64,000 bases of DNA from Eledone cirrhosa. Taxonomy: Eukaryota. The notes under the pieces were generated by a model. That model did not search any database, had not been told where the DNA came from, and worked only from the letters and a program-made list of their open reading frames with translations. Made by a program: the position numbers and the translations under genes. This document shows, piece by piece, positions 25,085 through 62,770 of this stretch (positions within the stretch are counted from its first letter, which is position 1; each line of letters opens with the position of its first letter). The stretch is taken from contig OZ024749.1 in assembly GCA_964016885.1 (NCBI GenBank), forward strand, positions 49,910,001 through 49,974,000. Direction: 5' to 3'.

Positions 25085-25623
25085 GTAGATAAATCTACCA
25101 AGAGTTTACGGTAGTGTCCAATCCGTATGAAGAACTCAATGTATTCCGGATATCATGGAAAGAAGAGATGTAATGAAAATCCACTTTCGGTGAAAGATAA
25201 ACGGTATACAGAGTCAAGATAAAATATTAAACAAATAATGAACAAACAATTCCTTATATTAAACAAAAAAAGTTCACTATTTAACGATCGTTTCTAGGGT
25301 ATATATGTGTTATAATTGGTATGCATATTTAACAGATCTATGTACAAAATTATACAAAATTATACAAATTATCAAGATTAAATATACATACCTAACTCAT
25401 ATATACGCCGTCTTCAGAAATAATCTGAAGACGGCGTATATATGAGTTAGGTATGTATATTTAATCTTGATAATTTGTATAATTTTGTATAATTTTGTAC
25501 ATAGATCTGTTAAATATGCATACCAATTATAACACATATATACCCTAGAAACGATCGTTAAATAGTGAACTTTTTTTGTTTAATATAAGGAATTGTTTGT
25601 TCATTATTTGTTTAATATTTTAT
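25085..25623 (-). mobile_element. (TA)n-flanked fold-back element with a perfect 200-bp-arm palindrome
   Basis: Arms at 25219-25418 and 25424-25623 with loop aataa. The arms contain CTGAAGA...GAAA-CGATCG-TT hammerhead-like pieces. Terminal motif aagaactcaat at 25130. Confidence 0.85.
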
Positions 25624-26604
25624 ATATATATATATATTTAAAAGAATAGAGGTGTAACACACAAGTTATTATATGTTGGTAAACGGAATAGAAAATGGTG
25701 ACAAATTGTTCACAGTGAAAAATAGTTTAATTAGGAATAAGTGAGAATTAGTAATTGTATTGGTTAGCATTCAGTTTTGGCTTTAAGTTTTAGCGGTTGC
25801 GCATTTCTAATGCTTTTCAAAAATAATTTTGAGATAGAGCGTCCGTAATCTTTGCTCTGACATTCCATCAGAAATTCTATGTCGCTTTAAAAACATGATT
25901 GCCCAACGTTTCTTTTCATTTCCTATTTCATTACCAACGACAATGATGAGAATATATCTTAAATAGTTAAGCTGATTATAAAAGCAATTCCCTTAGAGAG
26001 CAGCTGGTGACAAACACATCATCATTTTGTTTTGCTGTTTATAATGAACTAATAGCTAAACAGGAATATATTAATTATAACACCTCTGATTGTTTGAAAA
26101 TTCAGCACTTAGCGTTATACTGTGCTTTATTTGTAACAATATACTACTAACAACTGAAAATAATCCAATCTTCAGGATATATTTCTCTGCTCTACCTATC
26201 TAAATATTTACGTAATGAACACAATACAGTTACGATATATTATGTTATATATATATATATATATATATATATATATATATATATATATATATATATATAT
26301 ATATATATATATATATATATATATATATATATATATATATATATATATATATATGTATATATATATATATATATATATATTGTTATATTGTTATATTTGG
26401 GGAGGGTCATATTTGCGTAATATTGCCAGAATTAATAACAGAACACACTCACTGTTTGGTTGGTTTTCGCTTCTCGCTGTCTTTTATATATATATATCTG
26501 CGATCTAACTTACTCGGTCCTCAATGCTGCCATTGACTGACCGGCGGTCAAAAATAATACAGATACAATATAGACAAACACATATATATATAGTTTACAT
26601 AATT

Positions 26605-26646
26605 TACATAAATCTTTCGTTGCACATCTGCAACATCGTCAGTGGT
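26605..26646 (-). ncRNA. Hammerhead ribozyme core in the Penelope 3' region (partly degenerate)
   Basis: Reverse complement reads CTGACGA t gttgca gatg tgcaac GAAA gat. Stem II is intact, but stems I and III are poor. Confidence 0.55.
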
Positions 26647-26929
26647 GTTATATTCATTGTTCCTCCTGTTGTGTTGTATGTCTACGCCATTTTTTTTTTT
26701 TTTTGTTCAGTCTGTCTATATATTTATTTATTTATTTGCTTGTTTGTTTATCTTATTTTATTTTGTCTTCTTTGCGCATGCGTTTGCGTGTGTGTATAGT
26801 GTTATGTGTGATGTGTGACTAGTGTGTATAGTGTTGTGTCTGCTGGGTGACTAGTGTGTGTTTATGTGCTTGTGTATGTATTTATTTATCTTATTTTATT
26901 TATTTTATTTAATTTACTTATTTATTTAT

Positions 26930-27836
26930 ACTTCTCTTAGGTCAGTGTTGTTTGTTTGGGTGTTGTTGTTGTTCCACGCATTTTTTCTGTTTAGCTTTCG
27001 TCTTCTAATTTCTATTTCACTGGCCTCTCTGATTTGCCTATCTGCTGGGTCATTCCTATGTTTAGATATTATTCTAATTTCTATGTTGTCTATGTTACCG
27101 TCATGTTGTTGTCTAGCATGTTCGTATAGTACTGACCCGTTTTTTTGTCCTTTTAGTTCCCCCAGTGTTGGTCTATCCTTTCACCTATGCTACGAGCTGT
27201 CTCACCTATGTATGTTGTTGTCGTGTTTCTGCAAGTACCCTCTGTACATCTTATGCTATAGACTACGTTTCTAGTTTTACAGTTTATCCGGGGGTTCACC
27301 TTACATATGATACATTTCCTATTGGTACAGTGGGTTTTCTTAAAAGGGTAGGTTTTGCTGATCAGGGATTTTATGGTGGTTCCTGGCTTTTCTACCACCT
27401 TTATTTTTAAGTGGGTCTTTCTCAGGGCCTTTCTACACTGGTTAGCTAATTTCCCTCCAGGGGTGGCGTCCACAAACATGACACTCTGATATCTCTGGTT
27501 GTCGTACCATGATGTGGCCTTCCCTATCTTATGTCTAGCCCTATCTAAGCTATTCCATGATTTGCTCCTGTATAGTGGGCAAATTCCTTTCATGTCCAGT
27601 TCTATGAGGGTCTTATACTTTTCCATGGCTCCTTCGTATACTCTGACTCTGTCTCTTTGGTTGTAGCCAGAGAACTGCATGCGGTTGATGAAGTGTTGGA
27701 TGTGTCCTTCCATTTCTGTTGGGTCGCACATGCTGGACACATTCTTCATCACTCGTACCAAATCTGCGATCAGAATATTAAACTTAGCACTACTGGACAT
27801 TGCTGAGTTTTTGAGTATCAGGTATTTGGAGGCCAT
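26930..27836 (-). pseudogene. Penelope-like RT-thumb/GIY-YIG ORF remnant
   Basis: GIY-YIG motif VVY...YIGET with the conserved R, H, E and N positions. One stop/frameshift near 27150. Confidence 0.88.
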
Positions 27837-27855
27837 GGGTTTAGCATATATATAT

Positions 27856-60438: not shown

Positions 60439-60439
60439 A

Positions 60440-60643
60440 TTTTTATAATATAAGTTATCCAATGTTCAATCGGGTTCAACCACAGTGAGTAAGGTACTCA
60501 ATACAAAGCAGAGTATGAAGGTTTAATATAGAAAACTTCCTACAGGTCTAGAACGGTTTTATTCGTGAGAAATCATCGTTAGCTTCCTGATGATATCTCA
60601 AGAATGAAACACTTCTAGTCCTGTAGAAGTCTTTCTATATTAT
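60440..60643 (-). mobile_element. Fold-back element with degenerate hammerhead cores at the fold
   Basis: Inverted repeat at about 60523-60643, CTGATGA...GAAAC at 60587-60610 and motif aggtactcaata at 60492. Confidence 0.75.
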
Positions 60644-62048
60644 ATATATATATATATATATATATATATAATGATTAAAGTGAGAGAGAGAGAGAGAGAG
60701 AGAGAGAGAGAGAAAGAGAGAGAGAAAGAGAGAGAGAGAGAGAGATAGAGACAGAGAGAGAGAGAGAGAGAGAGAGAGAGAGAGAGAGAGAGAGAGAGAG
60801 AGAGTATCAATTAATAAATTATATGTATATATATATATATATATATATATATATATATATACACACTTCTATTTCTTCATACCTGCACCATAAATTTACC
60901 CGAACCGATGTATTTGTTCATTAACAACTTGACAGTTGTTACATTCTGGGGACATTTCTCAAACACCAATCTTCGGCTAGCTAGTATTGCAGGTATTTTC
61001 ACAGCAGTCTTCCAGCATATATATTCGCCTTAGCTGTTTCCTACTTTTTATATTATGTGTCAAATAATTATTCTACGGAGACCGAAACCCATATAGATAA
61101 TGAAAAGTTATTGCCTTTACATCTCTTAAATATACTTACGTTGTTCTCTTGCTGGCATTTTCCTTACTTTTTTTTGGTTTACATTTTGACTTTATTAAAC
61201 ATTCGCCTGGTTTTTTTTTATTTTTGGTGCCATACTTTTTCAATGGTCTAACTTATTTTACTCTTCTGTGTATTTTTTCCGCATACGTTGTGTCTTCTAT
61301 AAAATGTTGCAGTAGGTTGTAACTTTAATTTATTACCTATTAGCATTCCAATTCTATTCAACTTTCTATATGAGCATATTTTCTCATCCCGTATATTTTT
61401 TCTCCTTGTATATTTATTTTCCTTTGCCATTAAAATTTGTATTATATTTTCTTATAACGTGGTGGATTTTTGCACATTAGGTTTAGTTTCCAAATTTGAT
61501 TGAGAACCATTGATGTTTTATATTCTCTTATCATATTTGTATGCATTAATTTCACGTTCACCACTGTGAATCTAAGATACACGCACACACAAACACACAA
61601 ACACAGCCACACACACAGAGCTTTATATAAACAAGCCGCCTCCTCTCTCACTTTCATTCTTTTTTCTCTATCACTGTACATATATATATGTGTATGTATA
61701 TATATACGTGTATGTCTGTGCGTGTGTGTGTGCCTGTGTGCGAACATGTATATATATATATATATAGTAATAGTAATGAATTTGAAGACTAAAATCCAAA
61801 GAGGGCTCGATAAGCATAAATATATATCAAATATACAAGAACCGTAGAGCAATATATATATATATATATATATATATATATATATATATATATATATATA
61901 TATATATATATATATTTATATATATATATGCGTGTGTGTGTGTGTTTGTGGGGGGGGGGGGGGTGTAATTATCAATTTATATCTATCTATGGTGGCTAAA
62001 AAGTCCTAGATCCATGGACGAGTTTTCTCCAGCGGTTTCTGTCCTTCA

Positions 62049-62580
62049 TCATCTCCGACATGTCCTGCGTCTCTTCTGCGTTACATTCGAGCTGACATTT
62101 GCGAGGCTCCAGTAGAGCTCTGAGTTATTCCTCCTCAGTGCATACTCATTTATGTTCAGAGCCATCCTCAGCATTATCGTGTAACACACATCCATCATAT
62201 GAGTGAGTGTTTTGGTCAGTGCCCAAGTCTCAGACCCGTACACTAACACAGACTCCACTGTAGCAACGATGACACATATGTTCAGGTCTTTATGAATGTC
62301 CGACGTCCACACCGATCTCAAACTGTGGCAAGCTGCCGAGACACTGGTCTTACTCTAAACCACATCGTCCTCTGTGTTCCCAATCTTTGCTCCCAGATAC
62401 TGGAAGTCATCAACCAAACATAGCGCCTACTCCTACATACATAACCTTATCTAGCTTCTTAATGTTCTCTACCAGATGCATCGTCTTAATCTCATTCATT
62501 CTCAGCCCCATTCTCATCGGCAGAGTCTCCAACTCCTGCATCAAATACTCTGCCTCCTCCACTATGTTTGTCACTGGAAC
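62049..62580 (-). mobile_element. Decayed RTE-clade LINE RT C-terminal fragment
   Basis: VDDFQYLGAKI..., ATVESVLVYGSETWALTK..CYTIMLRMALNI..NSELY are typical RTE motifs. Confidence 0.85.
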
Positions 62581-62617
62581 TACGCATCTATCTCTCTCTC
62601 TCTATATATATATATAT

Positions 62618-62770
62618 AACTTTTGATGCATGCTTAAAGCGTCCGTATGTGGTAGGCCGTATGAGCACTCAATGCCCTTGAAGAGGAGAGTACGATGTCA
62701 CAGAAAAAAGAGATTGTAATATGTCCAATAAATTTCTTTCGTCGCAACACTGATTCACCTTTTTCTATCA
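62618..62770 (-). mobile_element. Family G copy with the hairpin core deleted
   Basis: The leader and left-arm start (tcacagaaaaaagag) are joined to the right-arm sequence (attgtaatatgtccaataaat..cgtcgcaacactgatt) of 41927-42324. Confidence 0.8.

Follow-up and report, generated by a model that had tools for sequence, protein, structure and literature searches.

A position-locked motif beside (TA)n arrays of Eledone cirrhosa probably marks a stem-loop in the tails of Penelope-like element insertions

We analysed a stretch of 64,000 nucleotides (nt) from the genome of Eledone cirrhosa (assembly GCA_964016885.1, contig OZ024749.1, positions 49,910,001 to 49,974,000; hereafter the window, with positions counted from its first letter), in which copies of the motif RRGYACTCRAT recur beside (TA)n microsatellite arrays. 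The motif is probably the conserved strand of a short stem-loop (in the sense RNA, RCUC...GAGY followed by an unpaired RCUY) that lies in the tail of Penelope-like elements (PLEs) and likely positions the reverse transcriptase (RT) at an inner start site 6–9 nt upstream. The carriers are insertions of endonuclease-bearing (EN+) PLEs, a known kind of element, together with truncated or non-autonomous derivatives of them.

The eight main instances of the motif named in a preliminary description of this DNA were all located at their positions. The strict motif has five matches in the window, all on the plus strand, against 0.43 expected, and none of 100 shuffled sequences reached five. Sequence was then read outward for 110–150 nt from each junction with a (TA)n array of five or more units. 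The relaxed form RRNNACTYRRT was present in 9 of the 208 flanks of the window, in all nine cases in the forward orientation (reading away from the junction) and at offsets of 44–55; the ninth match, near position 3160, lies outside any recognisable element. Counted from the first base of the element, the offsets in the families of the window are about 36–49. With 119 stretches of 10 kb sampled across the chromosomes of the same genome, the pooled sequence comprised 1.254 Mb and 3593 flanks. On both strands together the strict motif occurred 66 times in this set, of which 38 were forward at an offset of 40–49 inside the (TA)n junction, while the remaining forward offset bins held 0–4 each; a first pass over 654 kb gave an equal picture. 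Because of this enrichment in a single orientation and at a single offset in the genome sample, together with the counts in the window, the motif is real, oriented and position-locked.

Folding of every motif-bearing segment revealed the same layout in every carrier: a (TA)n array, a one-sided tail, two inverted copies of the 3′ part of the element arranged head to head, and a second (TA)n array. The unique stretch with the motif comes first and is followed by a near-perfect hairpin with arms of 40–200 nt, the far arm of which reaches the next array. The motif lies inside the tail, which is 62–137 nt long and occurs at one end only; 65 segments between arrays carry a motif tail, and none of these has such a tail at both ends. 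The eight instances in the window represent five families, namely A (39367, 46916 and 49465), B (41971 and 62663), C, D and E, and the sample beyond the window added family G, a D-like family H and several more. The preliminary description had called the carriers otherwise unrelated families. This is correct insofar as the 8-nt core RRGY+ACTC is the sole alignable part among them and the flanks remain unalignable when the alignment is anchored on ACTC, but the eight instances reduce to five families that have one architecture throughout. Partial similarities are also present, as D and H have ~28 nt around the motif in common, and B, C and D have CCGTA upstream in common.

Family A, a repeat of roughly 225 bp, illustrates the hairpin part of the insertions. 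A genome search returned 5110 first-look candidates, 40 of which were scored, giving 84 matches at 90–95% identity, and (TA)n flanked both sides in all 20 loci listed. The divergence between arms was 3.3% within copies and 4.1% between copies. Fifteen arm variants were confined to a single arm and three, all in one copy, were mirrored in both arms; the mirrored variants are suggestive of both arms having been copied from one template and are too few to count as support. The apex of the family A hairpin is hypervariable among the 25 hairpins listed, of which 24 are distinct. Elsewhere in the window, two palindromes with 86-nt arms (4271–4449 and 58637–59137) have (TA)n at both ends and a tail on neither side, and these may be insertions of the same PLE-hairpin kind with two tail-less ends.

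The coding element behind one of these tails is found at locus L049 of the sample. There, an open frame encoding CFCRKPEAC (a CxCx5C pattern) and the VIY...YVG of a GIY-YIG endonuclease lies upstream of the D tail and runs on the opposite strand from the motif as written. Facing it head to head is a further copy of this 1.1 kb in inverted orientation, which ends 64 nt early, where it immediately meets (TA)n. The carriers had been described as retroelements whose sense strand is opposite to the motif as written, and the junction between the D tail and a PLE frame agrees with both points; the sense form of the motif is AUYGAGURCYY. The carriers do not resemble families of long and short interspersed nuclear elements (LINEs and SINEs) with a common tail; they are PLE insertions with inverted copies and a one-sided tail. 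Among 75,747 first-look candidates from a search with the D-type protein, the 134 that were scored had 85–93% identity. D frames of up to 628 amino acids contain YRDD, DKT and CxCx5C and combine an RT with a C-terminal GIY-YIG domain. Homologues of the D protein have ~700–730 amino acids, and the best-named one, P0001 (1086 amino acids), has a precomputed PF01541 assignment. The single open reading frame (ORF) with RT and GIY-YIG that is expected of an EN+ PLE is thus present in D-type frames on the evidence of motifs and of PF01541 in the homologue.

The published insertion signature of PLEs consists of an inverted, 5′-truncated copy (a pseudo-long terminal repeat, pLTR) and a tail at one end, as described in the accessible text of PMC3846280 and PMC8557442. 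In agreement with this, the D pairs are head-to-head inverted 5′-truncated copies with arms of 190–1138 nt and apex gaps of 169–1363 nt, the tail is one-sided, and tandem or pseudo-LTR arrangements with an internal tail occur in L089, L096, L097 and L103. The tails described here resemble published EN+ PLE tails in their location at one end of a head-to-head inverted insertion, in their internal location in tandem copies and in their AT-rich or (TA)n targets. They differ from them in length, 62–137 nt compared with the 30–40 bp given in the accessible text of PMC8557442, and in having a sequence and structure motif common to many families. For the Hydra clade of PLEs, the same text lists (TA)n targeting, a CxCx5C linker, DKT and the absence of cysteines between GIY and YIG. 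By inspection and regular expression only, CSCRKPEAC and DKT were found in L104 with no cysteine between VIY and YVG; the D-type frames accordingly have CxCx5C, carry DKT where DKG might stand and lack CCHH within the core of GIY-YIG. Further likenesses to the clade, as far as it is covered by the accessible text, are the short element, with a D unit of roughly 2.4 kb in L103, and the single ORF of ~700 amino acids. Because CxCx5C, DKT, the ~2.4-kb unit and the (TA)n target match the published description, the carrier PLEs probably belong to the Hydra clade. A second PLE, type F, has a fragment in the window; since the similarity of the D and F proteins is not significant, the two represent separate PLE lineages. 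The 3′ end of the F fragment, at 26398, adjoins (TA)n and is of the tail-less kind. A weak instance of the motif reported near 26444, in a Penelope 3′ end, proved spurious, as it falls in the body of this other PLE, which has a tail-less end there.

Alignment of the D 3′ region to 28 loci gave 47 alignments, and it is apparent from these that family D has two discrete 3′ ends, 62–64 nt apart, with the motif between them. Nineteen alignments are tailed, end at reference position 372–382 (the outer end) and continue into (TA)n, and 14 are tail-less, end at position 313–319 (the inner end) and likewise continue into (TA)n. In four others the tail runs into the 5′ region of the element itself, three are tail-less and followed by other sequence, and seven stop elsewhere or at the end of the locus. 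Of the two outer ends, exactly one is tailed and the other tail-less in all nine head-to-head pairs of D that were resolved. In full-length tandem D copies (L089, L096, L097 and L103) the tail is internal, because it continues into sequence that leads ~160 nt on to an ATG, as measured in L103. The earlier suggestion that the motif belongs to a 3′-terminal module tied to the definition of the 3′ end is correct. Just past the outer end, the full-length D copies (L103:207–330; L096, L097 and L089) contain UAUCUACGUCUC, followed by ~90 nt with an internal duplication and then by the string GAGAGYRCUCUA. This look-alike of the inner-end module, UAUCUACGUCUC...GAGAGYRCUCUA, may be a second signal, one that positions the outer start.

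In the motif as written, ACTC pairs with a GAGT located 10–45 nt further in, and the sequence between the two differs from family to family. Tails were also collected by a motif-blind search for inter-array inverted repeats that have an arm terminating at an array on one side and 30–180 nt remaining on the other; the 71 structures obtained fall into 29 tail clusters. In 15 of the 29 clusters (13 of 29 with only the first member of each cluster), RCTC...GAGY whose fourth pair is matched lies 3–20 nt before the arm boundary. Shuffled tails averaged 0.18, with no more than 2 in any of 500 rounds, and the reversed arm sequence gave 0. The stem ends 6–9 nt before the inner boundary in 10 of the 15 stem-bearing clusters. 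The fourth pair is A..T in nine clusters, G..C in six and T..A in one, against nine mismatched combinations that are scattered, so that on this tally it covaries (A-U in nine families, G-C in six). Read as sense RNA, the module consists of the inner end, 6–9 nt of frequently UA-rich sequence, RCUC, a loop that varies, GAGY, the unpaired RCUY, a further 35–115 nt and the outer end. The preliminary description had placed the motif ~45 nt from the junction; this applies to families with 62–80-nt tails and fails elsewhere, as the distance between motif and (TA)n junction is 35–115 nt across all families (57–115 nt in further families), and the constant spacing is that to the inner end.

Hairpins at a fixed distance from the point at which copying starts or stops are familiar from the 3′ stem-loops of stringent LINE/SINE pairs and from telomerase template-boundary elements, and in stringent LINE/SINE pairs the non-autonomous element keeps the recognition hairpin in order to borrow the enzyme. 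The system described here differs from both in having a PLE RT with GIY-YIG, internal initiation and inverted double products. Among its closest counterparts is a PLE from Anolis studied in vitro, whose tail is the stretch between two internal RT start sites in a stem-loop, which has both target strands cut and extended, and which needs RNA ~55 nt downstream of the start sites (PMC11167929). The likenesses are the two adjacent RT starts that bound the tail, the starts at a stem-loop and the extension of both strands, which would give inverted copies. The Anolis element differs in belonging to another clade and in having its tail inside the start of the ORF, and the elements of the present genome are known from genomic copies only.

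By analogy with the Anolis mechanism (PMC11167929), the two D ends would be two RT start sites. The stem-loop just 3′ of the inner start may dock the RT and set that start, a reading suggested by its position, which corresponds to that of the RNA required for binding in the Anolis study. Hairpin inserts would then arise when complementary DNAs (cDNAs) primed from both strands of a cut (TA)n array, one begun at the inner site and the other at the outer, join head to head. The hypervariable apex of family A fits such joining. Short families would persist by keeping the tail module that the PLE enzyme requires.

Several observations weigh against the proposed role of the stem-loop. By our search rule the stem is missing from 14 of the 29 tail clusters, including the F-type PLE, whose family has a different tail without the motif (L023:1475), so that it is not universal to PLE tails. 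Short families run into (TA)n with no further element sequence, which leaves the setting of their outer end unexplained. The folding energy shows no strand preference, with means of −6.65 for sense and −6.17 for antisense, and the loop interiors are weakly structured (mean z −0.68). Variation in the stem-loop region of family D, 0.036 variants per site per copy, is close to the 0.039 of the rest of the tail, as expected for neutral decay, and gives no support. The stem-loop of the Anolis element is AC-rich, with no ACUC...GAGU in the letters of the figure (PMC11167929). The Pfam scan of the D and F frames found no domain in either, the D frame having been tested at E values up to 1, and Rfam found no hammerhead in the window, in the E element or in the D 3′ end. 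The comparison of z-scores between the inner and outer halves of the tail revealed no difference and is uninformative. Because the figure letters of the Anolis stem-loop are without ACUC...GAGU, the sequence signal would be lineage-specific.

Neither the E element nor the 3′ end of D gave a ribozyme or any other relevant family in Rfam. In D copies a string CUGAAGA-N11-GAAAC with flanking CCGAG/CUCGG is readable and was not scored by Rfam, and a descriptor of the hammerhead core (CUGANGA-N7-17-GAAA) has matches in 4 of the 29 tail clusters. In the 3′ untranslated region (UTR) of D (L049:5818–5850; window 50660–50675) the full string is CCGAG-CUGAAGA-N11-GAAAC-AAUUGUU-CUCGG, which is minimal and hammerhead-like, and the arms of family E contain CUGAUGA...GAAAC. 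The inverted junction of the D copy in the window lies at a CAATTG palindrome, close to the predicted cleavage site of the hammerhead-like string. In contrast to the Hydra clade as described in the accessible text, canonical hammerheads were thus not detected by Rfam here, and the CUGANGA-N7-17-GAAA string is present in some D copies. Animal non-LTR retrozymes are short non-coding derivatives of PLE terminal repeats that are thought to be mobilised by PLEs, according to the accessible part of bioRxiv 10.64898/2026.07.22.740005. As characterised there, retrozymes are tandem repeats bearing hammerheads, whereas the elements described here are single hairpin-plus-tail inserts and their motif is not a hammerhead.

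A more far-reaching version of the stem-loop reading is advanced only tentatively, at somewhat less than even chances. In this version RCUC...GAGY with the unpaired RCUY would be a ruler for the internal start of Hydra-type Penelope RTs, much like the template-boundary element of telomerase, an enzyme related to these RTs, and any short RNA with it could serve as a template for copying into (TA)n, from the two cut strands at the same time. If true, it would explain thousands of hairpin-plus-tail mini-elements.

The motif could instead be a duplex-DNA site recognised by the element's GIY-YIG endonuclease, with homing beside or inside old copies building tandem, clustered arrays; we regard this as unlikely, although it is the strongest competitor. 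A precedent is available, as PMC11167929 cites previous experiments on the Penelope endonuclease of Drosophila virilis, for which recognition and cleavage of plasmids bearing Penelope depended on the tail sequence. The distribution of the elements is also in line with homing. Adjacent motif-bearing elements are mostly co-oriented, with ~16 same against 4–5 opposite pairs in a hand count, and loci with co-oriented neighbours include window 25085–62770 and L038, L060, L069, L154, L157 and L166. The last 38 kb of the window hold 7–8 elements in one orientation, ~4 times the density of about 1 per 20 kb in random loci. However, such clustering of orientation may also come from segmental duplication, as in L049, or from selection inside a gene, and local homing is one of three possible sources. 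A covarying pair with a variable loop favours a folded single strand over a duplex site, and (TA)n insertions occur genome-wide, beyond the neighbourhoods of older copies.

Still less probable is a motif without function that would be the slowest-decaying remnant of one ancestral tail, inherited or passed on by template switching. The carriers are indeed all one kind of element, some families are related (D and H over the ~28 nt around the motif; B, C and D through CCGTA), and variation within families reveals no constraint. Against decay stand the conservation of 8 nt amid unalignable surroundings and the retention of both stem strands, with constant spacing to the inner end, by 15 of the 29 clusters (0.18 expected by chance); in addition, the fourth pair occurs as A-U or as G-C with its two sides matched.

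We consider it very improbable that the motif is an initiator-like promoter element (TCAGT or TCAAT) that serves antisense transcripts of the element with (TA)n as a TATA box. TCAGT, TCAAT or TCGAT does occur in the motif as written, downstream of TATA-like sequence, and the spacing between TATA box and initiator is usually 25–35 nt; the spacing between array and motif is 36–115 nt and depends on the family, and the constant spacing runs to the inner boundary and not to the array. The paired GAGY strand would have no explanation either, even if the accessible text of PMC3846280 considers that PLE terminal repeats may hold promoters acting in both directions, as well as the use of templates in antisense.

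Finally, SINEs or miniature inverted-repeat transposable elements (MITEs) moved by a LINE, a Helitron or a DNA transposase, with the motif as the recognition site of the partner, can be given almost no credence: two ends in TA, small size, high copy number and a tRNA-like SINE beside a family G copy in L075 would suit them, but there is no tRNA-like part in the window, the ends are asymmetric with neither outer terminal inverted repeats nor Helitron-type termini, LINE frames in the sample are not joined to the tails, the LINE of the window has an (ATT)n end, it is a PLE frame to which the D tail is joined, and TATATA stands between the hairpin and the SINE in L075, which seems to have been inserted separately. 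The search for LINE frames used 134 of the 154 frames of 130 amino acids or more in 654 kb (8 window frames and 12 overlapping frames were set aside), among which Pfam found ordinary LINE RTs only, none joined to motif tails. A SINE dependent on a LINE 3′ tail was rejected as a candidate, since ARAGORN predicted no tRNA genes in the window and the only coding partner found for the tail is the PLE. The LINE at 500–2280 was rejected as a partner, as it ends in (ATT)n and the nearby match at ~3160 is outside any element. An argument on orientation from the SINE beside family G in L075 was withdrawn in view of the TATATA spacer, which suggests a separate insertion.

The stem-loop reading thus adds a new detail to the biology of PLEs, namely a shared cis-acting stem-loop with a fixed spacing to the inner end across unalignable tails; no such element is mentioned in the accessible text of PMC8557442 and PMC3846280 or in the main text of PMC11167929. 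The choice of internal RT start by PLEs has been addressed by one in vitro study of one vertebrate element (PMC11167929). The present genome provides a natural comparative set of at least 15 mutually unalignable tail families with the same 4-bp stem, unpaired trinucleotide and 6–9-nt spacing, and the stem-loop is a concrete, mutable cis-element for the published target-primed assay. For annotation, a practical rule would be to label the very abundant hairpin repeats of (TA)n-rich invertebrate genomes as PLE debris and not as MITEs, SINEs or microRNA-like hairpins.

The elements of the window are collected in Table 1. The D copy is an extremely 5′-truncated insertion of the abundant D-type PLE, consisting of the tail and, in inverted-repeat form, the final ~44 nt of the PLE 3′ UTR; its arms join at the CAATTG palindrome, and a (GA)n run separates the tail from (TA)n. 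An A-like stretch of 1.2 kb (46872–48077) was considered as an autonomous copy and rejected, as six-frame translation gave no long open frame.

Table 1. Motif-bearing insertions of the window and the F-type PLE fragment. Strand is that of the element; motifs are given as written on the plus strand.
Feature	Position	Strand	Tail and motif	Arms and remarks
Family C insertion	25085..25620	-	tail 25085-25221 (137 nt), as written on +; motif 25130-25140 AAGAACTCAAT	
Family C arms	25222-25418 + 25424-25620	-		inverted; (TA)n at both ends
F-type PLE fragment	26398..27935	-		GIY-YIG-bearing frame 27153-27935 (-)
Family A insertion	39323..39526	-	tail ~39323-39398; motif 39367-39377 AAGTACTCAAT	hairpin to ~39526; arms approximate, from fold
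Family B insertion	41927..42324	-	tail 41927-42002; motif 41971-41981 GAGCACTTGAT (ACTT variant)	long hairpin 42003-42324
A-like fragment	46872..46985	-	tail with motif 46916-46926 GAGCACTCGAT	start of one arm, no second arm
Family A insertion	49421..49644	-	tail 49421-49497; motif 49465-49475 AAGTACTCAAT	arms 49498-49570 + 49572-49644
Family D insertion	50564..50709	-	tail ~50564-50627; motif 50598-50608 GAGCACTCAGT	
Family E insertion	60452..60642	-	tail 60452-60523; motif 60492-60502 AGGTACTCAAT	arms 60524-60581 + 60585-60642
Family B copy	62619..62770	-	motif 62663-62673 GAGCACTCAAT in tail	internal deletion in arms; far end approximate

Rfam returned no matches at the gathering score in the window, and below it only microRNA-like low-complexity sequence among the matches listed; between 24000 and 64000, these sub-threshold microRNA matches come from perfect hairpins and (TA)n/(CA)n tracts and are artefacts of low complexity and palindromy. 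The LINE of the window, at 500–2354, is the 3′ part of a non-LTR retrotransposon with a zf-RVT match, is GC-rich (50%) and has a perfect (ATT)24 tail. Copies of tRNA-derived SINEs with GAGTTCAAATC / GAGTTCGATTCC boxes are located at 300–430 and 56341–56721 of the window, at L075:1220–1450 and in the right flank of L100; they include, in the window, one tandem pair of 190 bp, and several of the copies are in direct contact with (TA)n arrays beside PLE stubs.

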